Source: an uncultured Clostridia bacterium | GTDB taxonomy: Bacteria; Bacillota; Clostridia; UBA1381 | Direction: 5' to 3' | Assembly (NCBI GenBank): GCA_904395315.1 | Contig: CAJFNT010000048.1 | Span: 2,387 to 66,386 of the forward strand | DNA length: 64,000 nt | In this document: positions 25,326-53,769 of the stretch, in pieces | How the letters are laid out: every line of letters starts with the position of its first letter | Numbering within the stretch: position 1 is the first letter of the stretch | The notes under the pieces: generated by a model | Seen by the model: only the letters and a program-made list of their open reading frames with translations | Told to the model about the DNA's origin: nothing | Databases searched by the model: none | Translations under genes and position numbers: made by a program

Positions 25326-27965
25326 TTACTTTTTGAAAAGCGACCTTATCGCCTTGAGTATCTGTATAACTATGAACACAGCCACTGCCAGACCATAGAT
25401 CGTAAGAAGCTCAAATGCACCGATAGACGCAACCTGGAATATTCCCTGGAGTCCCGGAATAAGCAGTACAGCGTTTAAGAGAACAAACCCTATAAGGAAC
25501 GCGCCTATAAGGCTCCTGTTGTTCCACATCTGCTTCTTAAAGATAACCGGTCTGCCCGATTTACAGTTAAAACCATGAACAAGTCTTGAGAGACACAGCG
25601 TTGCAAACGCCATAGTACTTGCCATCTCTGCGCCGCCTCTGTTCAATCCAATATAGAATGCGATAAGCGTTGCTATACCTATAACCACACCTTCGACAAC
25701 TATATTCGTCATTACAAGCTTCGTCAAGATCGACTGATTCTTGTCTCTCGGTTTTTCACGCATAACATCACCGGAATACGGCTCCATACCCAACGCTATT
25801 GCCGGCAGACTGTCTGTGAGAAGATTTATAAAGAGCAGGTGCACCGCTGCAAACGGGACAGGAAGATTTCCCGGCGCCAAAGCAGCGTAAAGCACAGCGA
25901 GTATCGCAGCCGCATTACCTGAAAGCAGGAACTGTATAGAACGCTGGATATTCTTGTAGATATTTCTTCCATTCTCTACAGCCTTTACTATCGTAGCAAA
26001 ATTGTCATCGGTAAGAACCATAGACGCCGCATCCTTTGCGACCTCGCTGCCGGTGATACCCATTGCAACACCTATGTCCGCCTGCTTCAGTGCCGGAGCG
26101 TCGTTTACACCGTCACCCGTCATGGAGACAATATACCCCTTTCTCTGCCATGCGCTTACTATACGTATCTTGTGCTCAGGCGAAACTCGAGCGTATACCG
26201 CAACATCCGTTACGAATTCCTCAAGCTCCTTATCCGAAAGATTCTCTATCGCGCTGCCCTCAACAGCTCTGCGCTTATCGTCAAGTATACCTATTTTTCT
26301 CGCTATAGCCGATGCCGTCACAAGATGATCTCCGGTTATCATAATAGGCATGATACCCGCCATCTTACACTTCGCTACAGCTTCAGCGCTCTCTTCTCTT
26401 GGCGGATCCTGCATAGCGACGAGTCCGAGCAGGATATAATCCTTCTCGTCATCTGTCGTTATATCAACACTCGACACATCCTTTTCACATACGGCAAGCA
26501 CACGCAGTCCCATCTCTGAGAACTCTGTATTTACTCGTCTTAATTCATCAAGATCTTCCTTTGTAAATGCTCTCTTGCCGTCCATCGTCTTGACCTCAAG
26601 GATCATCGAAGCCAAAACATCGACCGCTCCCTTTGTAAGCATCTTATAATTCGGACCTATCTTATGCACCGTGCTCATAAGCTTTCTGTCAGAGTCAAAT
26701 GGTATCTCACCCAGACGCGGATATTGCTCACGCACCTCCTCACACGGAAGATCATGCTTCTTTGAAAAATCTATAAGAGCTATCTCTGTCGGGTCACCTA
26801 TCTCTTTTCCGTCCTTACGCACCGAATCGTTACAAAGCGCGCCATCAATTATGAGCTGCGCCTGACGCTCATTTATCTCTTCATCCTTGTCGATTATCTT
26901 GCCGTCAAAGTATATCTTCTGAACAGTCATTTTGTTCTGCGTGAGAGTTCCTGTCTTATCCGAACAGATTATCGAAACACTGCCCAGCCCTTCAACAGAC
27001 TGCAGCTTCCGTATGATCGCATTTTCCTTGGCAAGCTTCTGCGTTCCTATAGACAAAACTATAGTTACGATCGAACTCAAGGCCTCCGGTATCGCTGCGA
27101 CAGCAAGCGCGACAGCGAATACAAACGCATCCGAGAACAGTTTTATATCAAAACCGCCGCCGGCAAACAGCGCAGTCCGCTCTCTGAACAACTCGATACC
27201 CATAACTATCACACATATGATAATAATGATAAAAGACAACTTCTTTCCGAAATTATCAAGGCTGACCTGCAACGGGGTCTTCTTTTCCTGTGTATTTTTA
27301 AGAAGAGTAGCGATCTTTCCGATCTCGGTATTCATTCCCGTTGATGTCACTACCATCTTAGCTCGACCGTATGTCGCAAAACTTCCGGAATAAAGCATGT
27401 TTACTCTGTCGCCGAGCGGCTTATCACCCTCAAGCACAACATCCTGCTTTTCAACAGGCTCACTCTCTCCCGTTAAAGCGCTCTCATCTGCCTTAAGCGA
27501 TGCATTCTCAATTATTCGTCCATCGGCACAGACATAGTCTCCGGCTTCGACAACGACAACATCTCCGACAGCTACTTCTTTGCCGGGTATTACTTTGATC
27601 TCCCCGTCACGTATTACTTTCGCTTCCGGCGCTGACATCTCTTTCAAGCTGTCAAGTGACTGTTCCGCCTTTATGTGTTGAACGGTACCCAATATCGCAT
27701 TGATCGTTATAACTACAAAAATTACGATCGCGCTTTCTATATCTCCCAGTATACCTGAGATTATGGCGGCAATTATAAGTATAATTACCAGAAAATCCTT
27801 GTACTGTTCCAAAAACAGCATAACAGGATTTTTCTTTTTTCCCTCGGAAAGCTCGTTTTTGCCGTACCTGCGAAGATTTTCTGCCGCCTGCTGCGACGAC
27901 AATCCATTTTCGCCCGTTTTCAGCTCGTTCATAACGGATTCCTTAGTCATTTGAAACGGATTCAT
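25326..27965 (-). CDS. P2-type cation-transporting ATPase (Ca2+/Mn2+ exporter-like)
   Basis: LTGESEPV, CSDKTGTLTQNKMT, MITGDH, TGDGVNDAPALK. About 10 TM helices. SD AAGGAGAGG. Confidence 0.9.
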   Translation of the reverse strand: MNPFQMTKESVMNELKTGENGLSSQQAAENLRRYGKNELSEGKKKNPVMLFLEQYKDFLVIILIIAAIISGILGDIESAIVIFVVITINAILGTVQHIKAEQSLDSLKEMSAPEAKVIRDGEIKVIPGKEVAVGDVVVVEAGDYVCADGRIIENASLKADESALTGESEPVEKQDVVLEGDKPLGDRVNMLYSGSFATYGRAKMVVTSTGMNTEIGKIATLLKNTQEKKTPLQVSLDNFGKKLSFIIIIICVIVMGIELFRERTALFAGGGFDIKLFSDAFVFAVALAVAAIPEALSSIVTIVLSIGTQKLAKENAIIRKLQSVEGLGSVSIICSDKTGTLTQNKMTVQKIYFDGKIIDKDEEINERQAQLIIDGALCNDSVRKDGKEIGDPTEIALIDFSKKHDLPCEEVREQYPRLGEIPFDSDRKLMSTVHKIGPNYKMLTKGAVDVLASMILEVKTMDGKRAFTKEDLDELRRVNTEFSEMGLRVLAVCEKDVSSVDITTDDEKDYILLGLVAMQDPPREESAEAVAKCKMAGIMPIMITGDHLVTASAIARKIGILDDKRRAVEGSAIENLSDKELEEFVTDVAVYARVSPEHKIRIVSAWQRKGYIVSMTGDGVNDAPALKQADIGVAMGITGSEVAKDAASMVLTDDNFATIVKAVENGRNIYKNIQRSIQFLLSGNAAAILAVLYAALAPGNLPVPFAAVHLLFINLLTDSLPAIALGMEPYSGDVMREKPRDKNQSILTKLVMTNIVVEGVVIGIATLIAFYIGLNRGGAEMASTMAFATLCLSRLVHGFNCKSGRPVIFKKQMWNNRSLIGAFLIGFVLLNAVLLIPGLQGIFQVASIGAFELLTIYGLAVAVFIVIQILKAIRSLFKK

Positions 27966-28057
27966 ACAATAACCTCTCCTTGTTTGTTTTTTCAGGTGTT
28001 CGCCTGTCTTGTTTTTACGGCGCCGCTGCGCGCTCCCTTTTCCGCACCGTTTTCATA

Positions 28058-28118
28058 ACAAAAAAGAAGCAACACTTTTACAGCAGCACAATACCTGCAA
28101 TAAAAGTCTTGCTTCTCA
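28058..28118 (-). terminator. Riboswitch expression-platform terminator
   Basis: Minus strand AGAAGCAAGAC...GUGUUGCUUCU long hairpin followed by U6. Its 5' arm is the conserved 3' segment of the aptamer. Confidence 0.7.
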
Positions 28119-28193
28119 GAATACGGCACGGATCAAAAGATCGTACTGTCGACACCATATTACACCTTTAGGTGCAAGCTACTCCCCTTTATT
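28098..28193 (-). promoter_or_regulatory. yybP-ykoY (Mn2+) riboswitch aptamer
   Basis: Minus strand AUAAAGGGGAGUAGC...CACC-uaaa-GGUG...GUCGACAGUACGAUC-uuuu-GAUCCGUGC...AGAAGCAAGACUUUU. It shares the GGGGAGUAGC, (U/C)GACA and AGCAAGAC..CUUU signature blocks of the L. lactis and B. subtilis Mn2+ riboswitches. Confidence 0.75.
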
Positions 28194-28199
28194 AATATA

Positions 28200-28228
28200 A
28201 TATTAACATATCTTTTTACTTGTGTCAA
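28200..28228 (-). promoter_or_regulatory. Sigma-A promoter of the riboswitch-ATPase transcript
   Basis: TTGACA (28223-28228), 17 nt, TAATAT (28200-28205). The predicted transcription start falls at the first nucleotides of the aptamer. Confidence 0.6.
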
Positions 28229-28300
28229 GATATATTTTTAAATTTTTTTACGGAGCCGCAAGAGATATTCTCCCTGTCCGACCCCGTAACTTATATATCT

Positions 28301-40816: not shown

Positions 40817-40962
40817 CCGATTACCTCCGTAAAACGTATAGCGCGCCGCATTATCCTGCACACTTCAGTATCTATCGACACATTAAGCTTTGCCCTGCGC
40901 TATCACAATAAACACATCCAGAATAAAGACGATTTTTCGTCTTTATTTCCTAAGTCGTGTTT

Positions 40963-40991
40963 ATTATAACATATAAATTACCCGCTGTAAA
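40963..40991 (-). promoter_or_regulatory. Candidate promoter of the polyamine operon
   Basis: Minus strand TTTACA, 17 nt, TGtTATAAT-like -10 (40963-40968). Confidence 0.4.
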
Positions 40992-41044
40992 GAAAAAACT
41001 CGTAAAATTTTAGCTTATGTTCCAAGCTGCATACACAACTTAGT

Positions 41045-41207
41045 TTATCCACTGTATTATCAACAACACTGTGAATAACTATGTTATGTCTACCCCATAA
41101 TCTTTTGTTTTATCCACAGTTGGTGTGAATAAAGAGGACAACTCACGCGGATATATGTGTTTATACCAAAAACGGCTGCGCATAAGTGTGGATAAATATG
41201 TGGATAA
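41045..41207. promoter_or_regulatory. DnaA-box cluster (3 perfect + 3 one-mismatch boxes)
   Basis: TTATCCACA at 41110-41118. TGTGGATAA at 41187-41195 and 41199-41207. 8/9 matches at 41045-41053 (TTATCCACT), 41070-41078 and 41124-41132 (TGTGAATAA). Confidence 0.7.
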
Positions 41208-41360
41208 TGAGGATTACATAATTGTTTATCATATTTATGTAACACTGTGTAATCTTTATGTAATAAACTATATTACATTTAATGCGAATTGTAATATTTG
41301 TAACACGTTCTCAATCAATATAAAATATTTAATATATAGAATATTCGGATAAATGTATTG
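41208..41360. other. AT-rich tract adjoining the DnaA boxes (possible unwinding element)
   Basis: About 20 percent G+C by hand count. Rich in TGTAA/TTACA and TATTT repeats. Confidence 0.35.
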
Positions 41361-41470
41361 CTAAAAAACTCTCCATGATATATAATAAGTATATAGGCGG
41401 ATGCAAAACAAATATTTCGCGATCCGTTTAACAGATATAAGTTTCATGAACAAAAAAACGGAGGAACGAT

Positions 41471-46176: not shown

Positions 46177-46375
46177 TTAAAGCACGCTCCTTTTCGGCAA
46201 AATACCGAACGCGAGCGGAAACTTTCTCCTGCCCGCGAACCGCAAATTTTGCATAACTTCCGGTAAAAACACACAGGCCGGACCGCAAGATCATCTTCGC
46301 CGTCCCGCCAAGATACAAAAAGAGCGTCTCATAGGAATATCCGCTTGCACGGATACCGAGACGACCCTCCTATAA

Positions 46376-46519
46376 TTATTTATCCGAAGTTGTAAGAATC
46401 TTTCTGCCTTTTGCGCGTCTTGCCGCAAGTACCTTTCTGCCCGACTTTGTAGCCATTCTCGCTCTGAAGCCATGAACCTTTACTCTCTGTCTTTTCTTCG
46501 GCTGAAATGTCATTTTCAT
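46376..46519 (-). CDS. rpmH: 50S ribosomal protein L34 (not in the ORF track, 47 aa)
   Basis: My own translation: [54 protein letters not shown] lies 10 nt upstream. Confidence 0.9.
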
Positions 46520-46601
46520 TGTTATATACACCTCCTAAACAAATCACTCCGCGGCCCCATTCGACCGCATTTATTTCCAAATATAATTAGACACCGTTTT
46601 T

Positions 46602-46630
46602 ATTATATTCAATATTCGTCAATTTGTCAA
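46602..46630 (-). promoter_or_regulatory. Consensus sigma-A promoter of rpmH-rnpA-yidD-yidC-jag
   Basis: TTGACA (46625-46630), 17 nt, TATAAT (46602-46607). Confidence 0.65.
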
Positions 46631-46710
46631 GCTTTTTTTCAGACTTTTTTTATTTTTTAACATATACCTTACCCGGATCAGAAAAATGTATGTCATAGAG
46701 AAGTTTTTTG

Positions 46711-46737
46711 TTAGCACTCTCGTTCATTGAGTGCTAA
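46711..46737. promoter_or_regulatory. CIRCE element (HrcA operator)
   Basis: Perfect TTAGCACTC-N9-GAGTGCTAA. Confidence 0.9.
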
Positions 46738-46997
46738 AATTAATACACTGTTCATATTTATGTCATTGAATCATAACACATTAGCGCTATAATAATAAAT
46801 GTAGAAAGGGAAAGAAAGCCTAACAAAAAAACAGCAGCCATTTATATGGCATACCGAAAGCAAGCTCTTATGACGCTTAACGGCATTCCCAAGTTCTGCA
46901 GGCAACGTCCGATATAAACAAAAGTATCTTATACCGAACGCATATAAATACAGTTGTTATGGACAGTATGTGTCCGTTTTAATAAGGAGGTATTATT

Positions 46998-49824: not shown

Positions 49825-49866
49825 ACCACCTGTTTCATACTATCAATATAGCGAAATAACGATACT

Positions 49867-49894
49867 ATTATATCATACTTTTTTGATTTGTAAA
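49867..49894 (-). promoter_or_regulatory. Sigma-A promoter of the glycolipid gene trio
   Basis: TTTACA, 16 nt, TGaTATAAT. Confidence 0.5.
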
Positions 49895-49930
49895 GTGTGT
49901 TTGACAAAATTCATCATTTTTACTGCAAAT

Positions 49931-49980
49931 GAAAGAAAAAGATCGGCGGTGACGCCAAAGTATAAACTTTGGCATACACC
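49931..49980 (-). terminator. Candidate terminator of the agr-adjacent non-coding transcript
   Basis: Minus strand GGTG-tat-GCCAAAGT-ttat-ACTTTGGC-gt-CACC, then GCCGAT and CTTTTTCTTTC. Confidence 0.45.
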
Positions 49981-50534
49981 CGACTCATACATAAATATGC
50001 AAATGAGTATACCCTAAAAGCCCGCCGGCTCATGCCGTCTCCGGGAGACTTTAACGGCACAGCCGAACGGCCAATCAGATCTCAGTCTCCTATGAACACC
50101 ATTCGGCACAACTTAATCGACAATATTTTATCAAAAAGTAACACTCTTATGTGTGCACAGAAAACGAAATGTTGCTGTTAAATCAGAGCATACGCCCTTT
50201 AAAATATTCATTTTTACTTATACACCGCAAAGTGCTATATCGTAAGTACCCTTTCGCTTTACCGGTCCAAGCAATCAGATACCACACATATAGACTTTCG
50301 CTCGCTGCGTATTTTTCAAGCCCTGTTTTCCGCCGGCAGAAAACCTCTCCCGTTCGGGGCTTGAAAGCGACTTTGAAGCCACAAAACTGCCTCCCGGTCC
50401 CATTCATTTATCGGTTTTCATGGAAAGAAAAGAAACCGAGACGTGAAAAATTGTGAGCATTGTAAATTAAGAAGCTCCTTTATTTACAATATAATAGGCA
50501 ATTGTGACACATTCATCTAACAATCACCTACCAC
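49931..50534 (-). ncRNA. Candidate ~0.6-kb LytTR-dependent non-coding RNA (RNAIII-like, hypothetical)
   Basis: Bounded by a direct-repeat-dependent promoter (50541-50609) and a hairpin plus U-tract (49931-49980). No ORF longer than 26 codons has an SD. Several GC-rich hairpins sit in an otherwise AT-rich stretch. Confidence 0.35.
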
Positions 50535-50540
50535 AATATA

Positions 50541-50609
50541 ATTTTACTATATAACATTTGATAAGTCAATACCATATGCAGGATTGGTCTTATTTCTACA
50601 GTATTGGTG
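50541..50609 (-). promoter_or_regulatory. Second LytTR-type direct-repeat operator + promoter
   Basis: Plus-strand TGCAGGATTGGTC (50577-50589) and TACAGTATTGGTG (50597-50609), 20-nt period. A 6-nt gap to GTCAAT (50565-50570, minus-strand ATTGAC), then 17 nt and TAAAAT (50541-50546). Confidence 0.6.
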
Positions 50610-50644
50610 CACGATTCGAAAAATCATAAAAAGCCGCCCCCATA

Positions 50645-51247
50645 TCAGAGGACAGCTTTAGTGCGTCTTTTCTGCTGCATGATCCATCCAACAGCCGCAA
50701 ATATTGCCACAGTGATAATCCCGACAGCTGTGACCACCGCAAATCTTTCTCCGTACGGTATAAAGCCGACATAGTTCAGTATAAAAAATACTGCAAGGAA
50801 TATGCTTACCACGATCACGCTTCTGCGTTTAAAAACCTTCCTCTCTATATCATCAAGGGGTTTCTTTTCCGCTTCCACCGGAGCTGTCACATACATGACA
50901 GCAGCCGATACAACGGTCATCATAACAGTAACGGTCTCAGAGAAAGGCCAATATCTTATAGCTGTCAATACGGCCGCGTATATTATACATGACGATATAT
51001 AACATCTAACGGCATTTTTCGCATGGCTTCCTCCGACATATTTTCTGATACATTTATAAACGATAATAAACACTGCGATCTCTAAAAGCATATTCGTAAA
51101 AAGTCCTATCGCCAAGGCGGACAATATGTTTGCGAAAGTTGTCAGAAATGTATTCAGACCATATGTATAATCCTCCGCGTCGTCCGCCTTAACGATCTCC
51201 TTTCGGACTGCACTGCCCACCAACCGTTTTGACAATGCCTTAAACAT
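50645..51247 (-). CDS. agrB: AgrB-family autoinducer-processing membrane peptidase
   Basis: 200 aa, ~6 TM helices. RKYVGGSHAKNAVRCYISS carries the catalytic His and Cys 7 residues apart, as in AgrB. Confidence 0.8.
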   Translation of the reverse strand: MFKALSKRLVGSAVRKEIVKADDAEDYTYGLNTFLTTFANILSALAIGLFTNMLLEIAVFIIVYKCIRKYVGGSHAKNAVRCYISSCIIYAAVLTAIRYWPFSETVTVMMTVVSAAVMYVTAPVEAEKKPLDDIERKVFKRRSVIVVSIFLAVFFILNYVGFIPYGERFAVVTAVGIITVAIFAAVGWIMQQKRRTKAVL

Positions 51248-51249
51248 TA

Positions 51250-51405
51250 TCAGAATTTGCGGTACTTCTTAGCTCCGCTCGGAAGTTCGTCCTGCCCCTG
51301 GAACCAACAGCTTGAGGAATTGGCCACCGATGCAAGCATGAAGGTAGCTACAACAGGTATAACTCCAAGCAACGCCGTGTACAGCTTCTGCAACTTCTTT
51401 TTCAT
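51250..51405 (-). CDS. agrD: AgrD-like autoinducing-peptide precursor (51 aa, not in the ORF track)
   Basis: My own translation: MKKKLQKLYTALLGVIPVVATFMLASVANSSSCWFQGQDELPSGAKKYRKF. SD AAAGGGAG lies 9 nt upstream. The stop is 2 nt before the agrB ATG. Layout: amphipathic leader, a single Cys, an acidic/Pro recognition tail. Confidence 0.7.
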   Translation of the reverse strand: MKKKLQKLYTALLGVIPVVATFMLASVANSSSCWFQGQDELPSGAKKYRKF

Positions 51406-51465
51406 TGGTATCAGCTCCCTTTCATTGATTTATACAGCCTGCTTCATTGGCTGTATTTCAATAAA

Positions 51466-51538
51466 ATGATACCTCAAACATGAAAAAAAGTCAATAATGC
51501 CTGCAGGATTGGTCATTTTTCTGCAGGATTGGTCATTT
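51466..51538 (-). promoter_or_regulatory. LytTR-type direct-repeat operator + promoter of agrD-agrB
   Basis: Two perfect copies of CTGCAGGATTGGTCATTT (51501-51518, 51521-51538), 20-nt period. A 6-nt gap to GTCAAT (51490-51495), then 16 nt and TATCAT (51466-51471). The repeats overlap the kinase stop codon. Confidence 0.65.
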
Positions 51539-52861
51539 CAGATCGTGTTCTGTAGATTCCCGGCAGCTCAGCGCAAAATAATTTATTATTATCAGCGTGT
51601 TAAACACCCGTGCACTGTGGTCATAGCTCCACTTTAACCTCCCGTCATACCTCTCCAGCGCATGATTTATACTTTCCATCCCTATACCATGCACATCACT
51701 GTCATCCTTTGACGATATCAACAGACCATTGTTATTCTGAGGCGGTCTGCCGCAGCTGTTCTCTACTTTGATAACGATATAGGCATCGTTCATTCCGTAA
51801 ACGCTGAGGAATATCCTCTTTTCTGCCGAGCGCCTGCAGCTTTCTATAGCGTTGTCCATCAAATTCGCAAAGATCGAAACGACATCGAGTTCCGCCAAAA
51901 ATGAAAGATCGATATCCTGCGCGTAGATCTGAAAAACGATGTCCTCACCGATACATTCCTCTGCTTTCTGTGAAAGCAGTATATTCAAAGCTTTATTGTT
52001 CGTGTATTCGGTAAGCAGAAATTCTTTGTTTTTATTCTCGAGGTCGTGTATCACAGACCGGACATCATTCTGATCCGCATTGAGCATTCCCTCGATATTT
52101 CTGCAATACTTTTCAAAATCATGCACCATTATCCTCAGATCGTCATATTTTTCTTTTATGACTCTGTAACTTTTAAGATCCGTCTCTCTTTTGCTCTCTA
52201 AAGCCTGCAAGTGTCGTATCTTTCGATTCTTTTCCATTATCCTGTCGCACACTATATAAACTACAAAGTTTGTAAGTATAAGCAACAGGCACAGCAACAC
52301 TGCCACCCACTGATTCTCTCCGCTCAAAAGTGTATGTATCTTATTGAATATACTCAGAAAAATACATGTTGACAGCGGAAGCAGCAGCAGCCAATATGCT
52401 TCCTTTGCCTTGTACTTTTGACTTCTGCTTATGGATATCCTTCTAAGTATTATTACCAAAACACAGTATACAACTTTTGACGTAAGATAAAATATAATAT
52501 CATCTGCTGTTGTAATAGTATGATATAGTTCAGGCTCTATTTTCACGTTTACAATAAGTGCTGCAACTAGCTCTCCAAACATCATAAGGACAGTCAAAAT
52601 TCCAATTTTTATAAGCATGTCACTTAATGTTTCAATGAATCCAGCATACAGTACGATACCATTAACCACTATAAAGCCAATTACATTAACAGCTGTACTT
52701 TGGGTCATACATACCAAACAATATACTGCATATCCAAATACAATAATTATATTACTTCTTATTCTTGAATGTCTGTACTTCATAATTGAATTTGTATAAT
52801 AAATCATTATCAAGCATTCAGATATAATAGGAAGTATGGTGGTAACAAATATAGTATTCAT
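51533..52861 (-). CDS. AgrC/HPK10-like sensor histidine kinase (polytopic sensor + GHKL ATPase)
   Basis: 6-7 N-terminal TM helices, H-box MVHDFEKY, N-box IFANLMDNAIESC, G-box DVHGIGMESI. The start overlaps the RR stop (ATGA). Confidence 0.8.
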   Translation of the reverse strand: MNTIFVTTILPIISECLIMIYYTNSIMKYRHSRIRSNIIIVFGYAVYCLVCMTQSTAVNVIGFIVVNGIVLYAGFIETLSDMLIKIGILTVLMMFGELVAALIVNVKIEPELYHTITTADDIIFYLTSKVVYCVLVIILRRISISRSQKYKAKEAYWLLLLPLSTCIFLSIFNKIHTLLSGENQWVAVLLCLLLILTNFVVYIVCDRIMEKNRKIRHLQALESKRETDLKSYRVIKEKYDDLRIMVHDFEKYCRNIEGMLNADQNDVRSVIHDLENKNKEFLLTEYTNNKALNILLSQKAEECIGEDIVFQIYAQDIDLSFLAELDVVSIFANLMDNAIESCRRSAEKRIFLSVYGMNDAYIVIKVENSCGRPPQNNNGLLISSKDDSDVHGIGMESINHALERYDGRLKWSYDHSARVFNTLIIINYFALSCRESTEHDLK

Positions 52862-53589
52862 CCTAGCTTATTTGCCAGCATAAAAAAGCTTTCATCAAAT
52901 TCCTTATATCTCCTCCTTGTCATCAGCGCAGTATATTTATTGCCGGCATAGCTCATGATGACATTGCTCTTAGTATACTTTACAACATATTTAAGATTCA
53001 CATAATAACTTTGATGAGGCTGGCAAAAATAATTCACCTCTTTCTCTATCATATTTTTCACATCGGAGAAGATCTCCTCCGCTTCAAACTCACCGTACAC
53101 AGTCGATGTCACGTGAGTATGACGTCCTGAGTTCGCAATATAGATCACAGAAGAAATATTCAATTCGACCTTTTGCTTGCTCCGAAGCCGGGTAACGATG
53201 ATACGCTTTGTTTCCGACTCTATCTTTTCAATAACCCTGTCAATGCCTACGCTCAGTCTGCGCCTGTCGATAGGCTTACCCAAAAATCGGATAGCTTTCA
53301 CGTCGAATGCGTTATCAAGATAAAACGGATAATTCGTTACAAATATCACAAGGCAACGGCTGTTCCTTTCAGCTATTCCCCTTGCAAGATCTATCCCATT
53401 CATTTCCTCCATCTCAATATCAAGCACGGCAAGATCATACTGTTCAGCCCTGTCAAGCAGATCGGCAGGTGAATCATATTTATGGATCAAAAATTCAATA
53501 TTCTTCTCAACGCATAAGCTACCTATCATCTCCATCTCCTCGTCAAGCGCTTTGCTCTCGTCATCGCAAACTGCTATCCTCAATTCCAT
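52858..53589 (-). CDS. LytTR-family response regulator (AgrA-like)
   Basis: Receiver domain (IAVCDDE...LAVLDIEM) plus a C-terminal LytTR DNA-binding domain (IYIANSGRHTHVTS...CQPHQSYYVNLKYV). Confidence 0.85.
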   Translation of the reverse strand: MELRIAVCDDESKALDEEMEMIGSLCVEKNIEFLIHKYDSPADLLDRAEQYDLAVLDIEMEEMNGIDLARGIAERNSRCLVIFVTNYPFYLDNAFDVKAIRFLGKPIDRRRLSVGIDRVIEKIESETKRIIVTRLRSKQKVELNISSVIYIANSGRHTHVTSTVYGEFEAEEIFSDVKNMIEKEVNYFCQPHQSYYVNLKYVVKYTKSNVIMSYAGNKYTALMTRRRYKEFDESFFMLANKLG

Positions 53590-53662
53590 TGTCTCATCTC
53601 ACAATCTCCACGTATCACAGCACCTATGATACACTTTATTTCCACAATTTTTTCACATTAAT

Positions 53663-53691
53663 ATTATATATTATCCTTTCGGATTAGTCAA
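53663..53691 (-). promoter_or_regulatory. Consensus sigma-A promoter of the RR-HK pair (no direct repeats)
   Basis: TTGACT (53686-53691), 17 nt, TATAAT (53663-53668). Confidence 0.55.
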
Positions 53692-53720
53692 TGAAAAAAT
53701 AATTTAACTTCCTTTTTGGA

Positions 53721-53751
53721 CAAAAAAATACAGCGGAACATATTGTTCCGC
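53721..53751 (-). terminator. Intrinsic terminator of the GH105 gene
   Basis: Minus strand GCGGAAC-aatat-GTTCCGC followed by TGTATTTTTTTG. Confidence 0.8.
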
Positions 53752-53769
53752 CGCATTATGTGTTATTTA

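Follow-up and report, generated by a model that had tools for sequence, protein, structure and literature searches.

What does an agr-type peptide quorum-sensing locus transcribe from a second copy of its autoinduction promoter, placed 3' of agrB and facing a stretch with no conserved open reading frame (ORF)? The locus in question lies in a 64,000-nt stretch of DNA (hereafter the window) from an uncultured Clostridia bacterium (assembly GCA_904395315.1, contig CAJFNT010000048.1), in which one promoter (P1) precedes agrD and an apparent copy of it (P2) follows agrB. The product of P2 is probably a structured non-coding RNA of ~600 nt under agr control, the output of a mobile agr cassette. A second agr promoter, a non-coding stretch and a conserved fold, taken together, make it a probable new signal-controlled regulatory RNA of a known kind.

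51466-51534, - strand: P1, the agrD operator-promoter, with repeats at 51522-51534 and 51502-51514, a -35 element at 51494-51489 and a -10 element at 51471-51466
50597-50609, - strand: distal operator repeat of P2, CACCAATACTGTA, 20 nt 5' of the proximal repeat
50577-50589, - strand: proximal operator repeat of P2, GACCAATCCTGCA, an exact P1 copy and the presumed site of the LytTR regulator
50541-50569, - strand: P2 core promoter, with -35 TTGACT (50569-50564), a 17-nt spacer and -10 TAAAAT (50546-50541), 10 of 12 positions matching consensus
49825-50644: 820-bp gap between the agrB stop codon and the start of the next gene
49931-50534, - strand: candidate agr-controlled non-coding RNA of ~600 nt, with no conserved ORF, no Rfam family and structure-preserving substitutions

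The 13-mer GACCAATCCTGCA (- strand) has exactly three zero-mismatch copies in the 64 kb, two 5' of agrD at P1 and one 3' of agrB at P2, with TGCAGGATTGGTC at 50577-50589 matching the P1 repeats (51502-51514 and 51522-51534) at every position. No further copy with fewer than two mismatches occurs in the 64 kb. The distal P2 repeat, TACAGTATTGGTG at 50597-50609, differs from the P1 repeat at 3 positions (10/13 matching) and keeps the 20-nt period. In both promoters the proximal repeat is followed by 7 nt, TTGACT, a 17-nt spacer and a -10 hexamer (TATCAT at P1, TAAAAT at P2). The repeat, the -35 and the -10 are each offset by 925 nt between P1 and P2, and the core aligns without gaps; the geometry of the two promoters is therefore identical, and cannot be chance. 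Judged from its sequence, P2 truly duplicates the agrD operator-promoter, P1, which served as its template. Its paired direct repeats, with a period of ~20-21 nt and just 5' of the -35, mark it as a putative LytTR/VirR-type activated promoter, from which transcription is predicted to start near 50534. An earlier sequence-only reading of the window had placed such a copy 3' of agrB, and all of its features (repeats at 50577-50589 and 50597-50609, 20-nt period, -35 and -10) are present. As that reading also held, P2 points away from agrB into the longest gene-free gap; by crude gene calls over the window, the only comparable gaps are 46177-46997, which holds rpmH, and 40862-41470 (609 bp).

Three metagenomic contigs carry the same agr locus with its downstream region, at nucleotide identities of 94% (L002), 87% (L001) and 85% (L003, truncated). 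The proximal P2 repeat, the -35 and the -10 are invariant in all three, and variation in the distal repeat is confined to positions outside the CCAAT..TG.A core. Sampling of the lineage is very sparse. A search of 5.8 billion proteins retrieved only 17 homologues of AgrB, and a genome-contig collection holding one genome per GTDB species yielded no match to AgrB or to the monogalactosyldiacylglycerol (MGDG) synthase encoded 3' of the gap. The neighbouring gene has its best named relatives in metagenome-assembled genomes of Clostridia or Eubacteriales, at ~45% identity. Among metagenome contigs, a clade-specific pattern of operator plus -35 had no matches, and a generalised operator pattern had five, of which one is real, on a contig that ends within agrB.

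The stretch into which P2 fires contains no conserved ORF, in agreement with its earlier description as ORF-poor. The - strand ORFs listed there, of 10 (MNVSQLPIIL), 18 and 74 codons, were all found. Between the window and L001, however, the region differs by indels of 2, 10, 1, 1 and 1 nt; the 26-, 42- and 74-codon ORFs are frameshifted in L001, and AGG replaces the ATG of the 18-codon ORF in L001 and L003. Because of these frameshifting indels, the lost start codon and the absence of constraint on the ORFs, a non-coding character for 49931-50534 is supported. That the P2 transcript instead serves as mRNA for a very small protein, or several of them, comparable to hld or PSM peptides and exemplified by the 10-codon ORF, is very improbable. 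All four sequences keep this ORF intact, a GGUGA resembling a Shine-Dalgarno sequence stands 7 nt before it, and in staphylococci peptide genes are direct targets of AgrA. However, the single variable codon of the ORF is non-synonymous twice (Pro to Ser and Pro to Leu), both being GC-to-GU changes inside the 5' hairpin H1, and the GGUGA, together with part of the reading frame, is predicted to be sequestered in H1; the longer ORFs decay as described.

A protein gene on the + strand, represented by a 101-aa ORF at 50151-50456, is effectively refuted. Versions of 101-128 aa are called in L001 and L003, but the comparison with L001 reveals four frameshifting indels, and only 64 aa align, at 58% identity, despite ~87% nucleotide identity. 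Substitutions at codon positions 1, 2 and 3 number 11, 13 and 19, with no clear third-position bias. The ORF has no Pfam match and a single homologue among 5.8 billion proteins (E=4.7), and when used as a protein probe for the region it retrieved L003 only.

The fold predicted for the - strand is preferentially kept by the substitutions that separate relatives. Its principal elements are:

50459-50534, - strand: 5' domain, formed by hairpins H1 (50491-50534) and H2 (50459-50490); -24.7 kcal/mol, z -5.1
50231-50296, - strand: long hairpin H11, the best-supported helix, 25 pairs
50014-50078, - strand: GC-rich hairpin H15, 22 pairs, 97% of cells paired

The fold was predicted from the window alone, and the 81 substitutions of L001 were compared on it with the same substitutions placed randomly on the same bases. 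They break 17 pairs against 28.2±3.4 expected (p≤0.002), include 6 double changes that stay paired against 1.9 expected (p=0.005), and leave the L001-substituted sequence at -150.5 kcal/mol on the window structure against -115±13 kcal/mol (p=0.002-0.005). Ten control segments, nine of them coding (from seven genes) and one intergenic, all gave p>0.05 on every measure. The reciprocal test, with the L001 fold and substitutions toward the window, gives 16 broken pairs against 23.8 expected (p=0.006), and the central 400 nt pass on their own (p<0.001). On the + strand, the window fold shows no preservation under the substitutions (p=0.19), while the L001 fold gives a weaker signal, as expected from Watson-Crick compensations. 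These results argue for a constrained - strand structure.

Support is best for H1, H11, H12, H13/14 and H15. In the 25 pairs of H11, eight one-sided changes stay paired, two are compensatory doubles (GC to AU) and two are broken; the three variable pairs of H1 all remain paired as GC/GU or GU/AU. H2 corresponds to TTGTAAAT..ATTTACAA, with AAAGGAG in its upper part. The apical loop of H15 (50040-50052) holds a conserved UCUCCCG (AAAGUCUCCCGGA in the window, AUAUUCUCCCGCA in L001); binding of this loop to a Shine-Dalgarno sequence is speculation. The hairpins named in the sequence-only reading all exist and appear in the predicted fold, whereas an enrichment of C-rich loops, which it had named for target prediction, was not shown. 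A sponge for CsrA was also entertained and dropped, since the ~8 GGA motifs counted by eye in 600 nt are close to chance expectation.

The presumed ends of the transcript are set by the following neighbouring elements:

50630-50659, - strand: intrinsic terminator of the agrD-agrB transcript, a 12-bp stem followed by UUUUUAUGAUUUU; -18.4 kcal/mol, z -4.3
49931-49980, - strand: presumed 3' terminator of the candidate RNA, a hairpin at 49943-49980 with a U-rich tract at 49931-49942
49867-49894, - strand: independent promoter of the next genes, TTTACA-16-TGnTATAAT, matching consensus at 11 of 12 positions and having an extended -10
3' of the gap, - strand: genes for a CrtO-like acyltransferase, an MGDG-synthase-like glycosyltransferase and a PAP2 phosphatase

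The agrD-agrB terminator overlaps the agrB stop codon directly 5' of P2 and is invariant in L001-L003; it is predicted to separate the agrDB transcript from P2. At the other end, the stem at 49943-49980 is followed by UCUUUUUCUUUC, and both are identical in L001. The composite hairpin with a U-rich tail that had been described at 49931-49980, just before a separate promoter for the next gene (49894-49867), is thus borne out in both parts. The promoter of the CrtO-like gene lies outside the agr cassette and is conserved in a sister lineage that has no agr locus.

This sister lineage (L012-L017), in which the CrtO-like protein is 69% identical, delimits the cassette:

49949-53747 (approximate, ~±10 nt), - strand: agr cassette of ~3.8 kb, comprising a sigma-70-type promoter, the LytTR regulator, the histidine kinase, P1-agrD-agrB and P2-RNA

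Its gene order is SLH protein, GH88, 168 bp, CrtO-like, MGDG synthase, PAP2, Hsp20, rpmH and rnpA; agr genes are absent, and nothing between GH88 and the CrtO-like gene corresponds to the RNA region. Since both are missing together, both belong to one ~3.8-kb cassette. In the alignment the cassette junctions fall inside the GH88 terminator, the left one after GCGGCGG (~53747) and the right one before CCGC(C/T)GAT(C)TTTTT (~49949). The U tract that would end the RNA is therefore homologous to the tail of the ancestral GH88 terminator, as is the 3' half of the RNA terminator to the GH88 terminator of the sister lineage. Whether the cassette was inserted or deleted, the RNA region, on this alignment, shares its fate with agr rather than with the lipid genes. 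The cassette is flanked by the two halves of what in the sister lineage is one GH88 terminator hairpin (53748-53754 and 49941-49948, compared with L012 5850-5885). The CCGC(T/C)G..TTTTT half is copied at each cassette end, which fits either a target-site duplication upon insertion or a deletion between direct repeats.

The operator arrangement recurs in distant agr loci whose AgrB proteins are ~50% identical. Their P1 repeats, GACCGATGCTGCA/AACCGATGTTGCA, GACCAAAACTGTA/GACCGATTTTGTA and GCAAATGTTGCA/GACAAATGCTGCA, have a 20-nt period and stand 7 nt before the -35, giving a family consensus of (G/A)ACC(A/G)A..TG(C/T)A with a period of 20 nt. A second such promoter occurs 3' of agrB in three further clades (L006-8, L024 and L025). 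This recurrence at distant P1 and P2 sites strongly supports the view that the repeats are the regulator's operator and P2 an 'output' promoter. At L025, P2 is followed by at least 690 nt without a called gene, up to the contig end. The window RNA has no homology to the P2 transcripts of L024 and L025 by blastn or MAFFT, and a TTGTAAAY..RTTTACAA hairpin common to all three may be coincidence.

Several results weigh against a stand-alone regulatory RNA in the window. The covariation sample comprises four sequences and two effective lineages, essentially one branch. Covariation among relatives, which had been suggested as a check, is seen as an excess of compensatory doubles within that narrow sample. 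The fold of 49925-50534 (- strand) has a minimum free energy of -200.8 kcal/mol (z=-5.1 against shuffles), but this score is unspecific, with coding segments of the same length reaching -3.7, and among 846 windows of 600 nt the region lies only 1.6 standard deviations below the expectation from its G+C and G+U content. The several GC-rich hairpins that had been singled out are therefore real but not special for this genome. Two further energy-based arguments were rejected: the gap in folding energy between - and + strands is explained by G+U content, and a substitution permutation based on minimum free energy only gives z≈-5 for the RNA but also z=-5.1 for a coding control. Since energy-only measures also score controls or follow composition, all were discarded, and only the structure-specific, controlled test counts.

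To these are added the drift of the sequence, a variable 3' end, the behaviour of distant P2 promoters and the outcome of a search for targets in the window. Identity to L001 over the RNA is 86.6%, against 88-91% at third codon positions of flanking genes; it reaches 94.8% in the 5' 135 nt (50400-50534) and falls to 74.7% in 50100-50249. The primary sequence thus drifts at about the synonymous rate, and constraint on it is visible only at the 5' end and in the promoter. In L002 the terminator domain is swapped for unrelated sequence without a clear terminator, and the 3' end is thus not universal. The replacement covers the last ~80 nt (L002 ~2640-2700, equivalent to window ~49945-50010), which are AT-rich, whereas most of the RNA is the same in L002 as in the window; either recombination or faulty assembly accounts for the replacement. 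P2 of L006-8 has a 170-nt leader and then a gene for a 554-aa signal-peptide protein without a Pfam domain, and P2 of L024 runs through ~700 nt with neither a credible ORF nor a terminator into a gene for a small secreted protein; P2, to judge from these loci, does not always mean a stand-alone RNA. Finally, neither blastn nor duplexfold revealed robust complementarity to any part of the 64-kb window that would point to a target. One apparent outlier (-52.8 kcal/mol) from the duplexfold comparison with crudely called translation-initiation regions reflects hairpin-to-hairpin similarity at a mis-called start and is not credible.

Could the region then be a decaying relic, the leader and coding region of a lost P2-driven effector gene that now evolves neutrally? 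Divergence close to the synonymous rate, and faster in 50100-50249, would fit such decay, as would the replaced 3' end of L002, the 554-aa secreted protein in the same slot of L006 and the rarity of the region in databases. It is nevertheless improbable. Substitutions spare the predicted helices and compensatory doubles are enriched, with nothing comparable in the controls; the region is present, with its length kept, in all three relatives carrying this agr locus. A tblastn search with the L006 554-aa protein, made as a pseudogene test, found nothing in the region or elsewhere in the window, and the G+C content of the stretch is at the coding level, unlike that of the AT-rich flanking spacers.

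A quorum-sensing input to the envelope-lipid genes, with the 600 nt serving as a long structured 5' leader behind a leaky or regulated terminator, is likewise unlikely, though less so. P2 and the lipid genes share an orientation, the terminator lies only ~110 nt from the next gene, and within this terminator the U tract is broken up and adjoined by a short stem. The missing clear terminator of L002, and the P2 transcripts of L024 and L006 that continue into a downstream gene, point the same way. However, the lipid operon has its own near-consensus promoter, kept in the sister lineage that lacks both agr and the region; the region was gained or lost together with agr and not with the lipid genes; and the hairpin and U tract are present in both the window and L001. 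A stand-alone, agr-controlled RNA therefore remains the probable product of P2.

Agr-type regulons generally include a regulatory RNA, as exemplified by RNAIII, the VirR-dependent VR-RNA, VirT and VirU, and Clostridioides difficile SpoZ (PMC10602386). The window RNA matches none of the known families by sequence: a cmscan of the whole window with the 4227 families of Rfam 15 returned nothing at gathering thresholds, and at E≤10 the segment 49700-50750 gave sub-threshold matches only, the best being rliI (23 bits against a cutoff of 45). The Staphylococcus aureus RNAIII model (RF00503) has no match in that segment even at E≤10, and blastn of the region against plasmid and phage records found none. 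RNAIII and the window RNA are both ~0.5-0.6 kb, with many predicted hairpins, and lie beside agr genes; each follows a second promoter whose LytTR direct-repeat operator is also that of the autoinduction promoter, and each is the presumed output of its circuit. They differ in that RNAIII is divergent from agrB whereas the window RNA stands in tandem 3' of it, in the absence of a conserved hld-like peptide ORF from the window RNA and in the gene order, which in the window is regulator, kinase, agrD, agrB. With no model match and no hld-like ORF the window RNA falls outside the RNAIII family, but its predicted features fit the functional class.

In Clostridium perfringens, VirR drives VR-RNA, VirT and VirU (PMC4963840; PMC10602386), and VirS/VirR is reported to sense an agrBD-derived peptide (PMC7492741). 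VR-RNA is 386 nt long and predicted to be rich in stem-loops, and the VirR-dependent promoters carry direct-repeat VirR boxes with the motif CCAnTT(n15)CCAGTT(n3)Cac (PMC4963840). The window operator, CCAATA n14 CCAATC n3 CA, resembles this motif, with a period of 20 rather than 21 nt; sequence similarity to VR-RNA was compared via Rfam families only, none of which matched. Whereas virRS, vrr and agrBD are scattered in C. perfringens and VirR does not activate agrBD, the window has a single cassette in which the same operator precedes agrD. In C. difficile, RgaR activates both agrB1D1 and SpoZ via direct repeats 5' of the -35, with critical G residues at -51 and -72 (PMC10602386). One LytTR/VirR-like regulator for agrBD and an RNA is the same two-promoter logic as P1 and P2. 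However, spoZ and rgaS/rgaR are not contiguous with agrB1D1, and AgrD1 does not signal through RgaS; in the window the gene for the presumed cognate kinase is adjacent, which makes an autoinduction loop plausible.

In Streptococcus pyogenes, FasX comes last in fasBCAX and is transcribed independently, with a ComE/LytTR-type site 5' of its -35 (PMC12675982). Like the window RNA, it is encoded last in its locus, from its own promoter apart from the kinase and regulator genes. At 205 nt, it has no agrBD partner and no known locus-encoded peptide autoinducer; the window RNA is about three times longer and unrelated in sequence. The sequence-only reading had likened the circuit to AgrA-P3-RNAIII in tandem orientation and stated that no RNAIII-type effector was defined for clostridial or ruminococcal agr systems. 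The duplicated LytTR operator is in keeping with the first comparison, but the RNA is not RNAIII by sequence or structure, and fasBCAX is a precedent for the tandem layout (PMC12675982). The second statement is contradicted by VR-RNA/VirT/VirU and SpoZ (PMC10602386; PMC4963840).

The remaining genes of the locus are as follows:

52858-53589, - strand: response regulator with receiver (PF00072, E=1.7e-12) and LytTR (PF04397, E=8.1e-8) domains
51533-52861, - strand: AgrC-type histidine kinase (HATPase_c_5, PF14501, E=1.6e-17)
51250-51405, - strand: AgrD-like precursor of 51 aa, directly 5' of agrB, assigned by synteny and sequence pattern
50645-51247, - strand: AgrB membrane peptidase (Pfam AgrB, PF04647, E=3.4e-38)

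With AgrB, AgrD, an AgrC-like kinase and an AgrA-like regulator all identifiable, the locus has the predicted make-up of an agr-type peptide quorum-sensing system. The AgrD-like precursor has zero Pfam matches, and its identity rests on synteny and a pattern of a Cys ring residue and a charged C-terminal tail (...SSSCWFQGQDELPSGAKKYRKF), position and tail being kept across nine loci. Distant AgrD sequences have Ser (SSGSWVRGQ; L006 4842-4997) or Thr (STATWMKGQ; L004 4845-4997) at the ring-Cys position, which suggests that the autoinducers of these lineages are lactones, not thiolactones. Between the window and L001, the AgrD ring residues read CWFQG and CWIQG, respectively, and the first ~150 residues of the kinase are ~61% identical (window 52400-52861) whereas the rest, up to about residue 400, is ~95% identical; this joint divergence of kinase N-terminus and AgrD ring resembles the agr specificity groups of staphylococci. 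A near-consensus sigma-70-type promoter without operator repeats (TTGACT, 17-nt spacer, TATAAT, by eye) lies at 53650-53690 (- strand), 5' of the response-regulator gene. Its make-up suggests that the sensor pair is expressed constitutively and that only agrDB and the RNA are autoinduced.

The cassette would thus comprise three transcription units. In the first, the constitutive sigma-70-type promoter would express the LytTR response regulator and the histidine kinase; in the second, P1 would transcribe agrD-agrB up to the strong terminator; in the third, P2 would yield the ~600-nt structured non-coding RNA (49931-50534, - strand), ending at the hairpin and U tract. As autoinducing peptide accumulates, the phosphorylated regulator would occupy the VirR-box-like direct repeats at both P1 and P2, and more signal and RNA would be made simultaneously. 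The RNA would be the output of the cassette, most likely acting on other transcripts or proteins in the manner of RNAIII, VR-RNA, SpoZ and FasX.

Two further intergenic stretches of the window stand apart from the agr locus. The gap at 40862-41470, between speD-like (- strand) and radA-like (+ strand) genes identified by eye, contains seven DnaA-box-like 9-mers within ~160 bp (41045-41207), three of them exact TTATCCACA; the cluster looks oriC-type, with jag-yidC-rnpA-rpmH 2-5 kb away and no dnaA adjacent. The second, at 27966-28300 (- strand), is a gene-free stretch of 335 nt 5' of a P-type cation ATPase gene (25326-27965). Once composition is allowed for, no part of the 64 kb is predicted to fold more strongly than the windows that cover this stretch (residual z=-3.2); it has no Rfam match and is possibly an unclassified leader or riboswitch.

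Thorough work on effector RNAs under agr-type control is limited to a few pathogens, the RNAs being RNAIII, VR-RNA, SpoZ and FasX. Though its practical value is modest at present, the locus provides a concrete operator motif and a search rule for orphan agr outputs in metagenomes: a second operator copy 3' of agrB. A broader view, put forward tentatively, is that the agr cassettes of this clade may carry an 'effector slot' 3' of agrB, fired by a second autoinduction operator and holding fast-evolving, mutually non-homologous structured RNAs of 0.6-0.7 kb in several lineages and secreted proteins in others. On this view the window RNA might be the first example to be recognised of a hidden class of quorum-sensing RNAs that are borne on cassettes in commensal or environmental Clostridia and move horizontally with the signalling genes. 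If the RNA is confirmed, the design in which one LytTR operator is used twice, for the signal and for an RNA output, would extend to an uncultured, non-pathogen-like lineage of Clostridia, and the RNA would travel with the signalling genes as one 3.8-kb unit of insertion or deletion.

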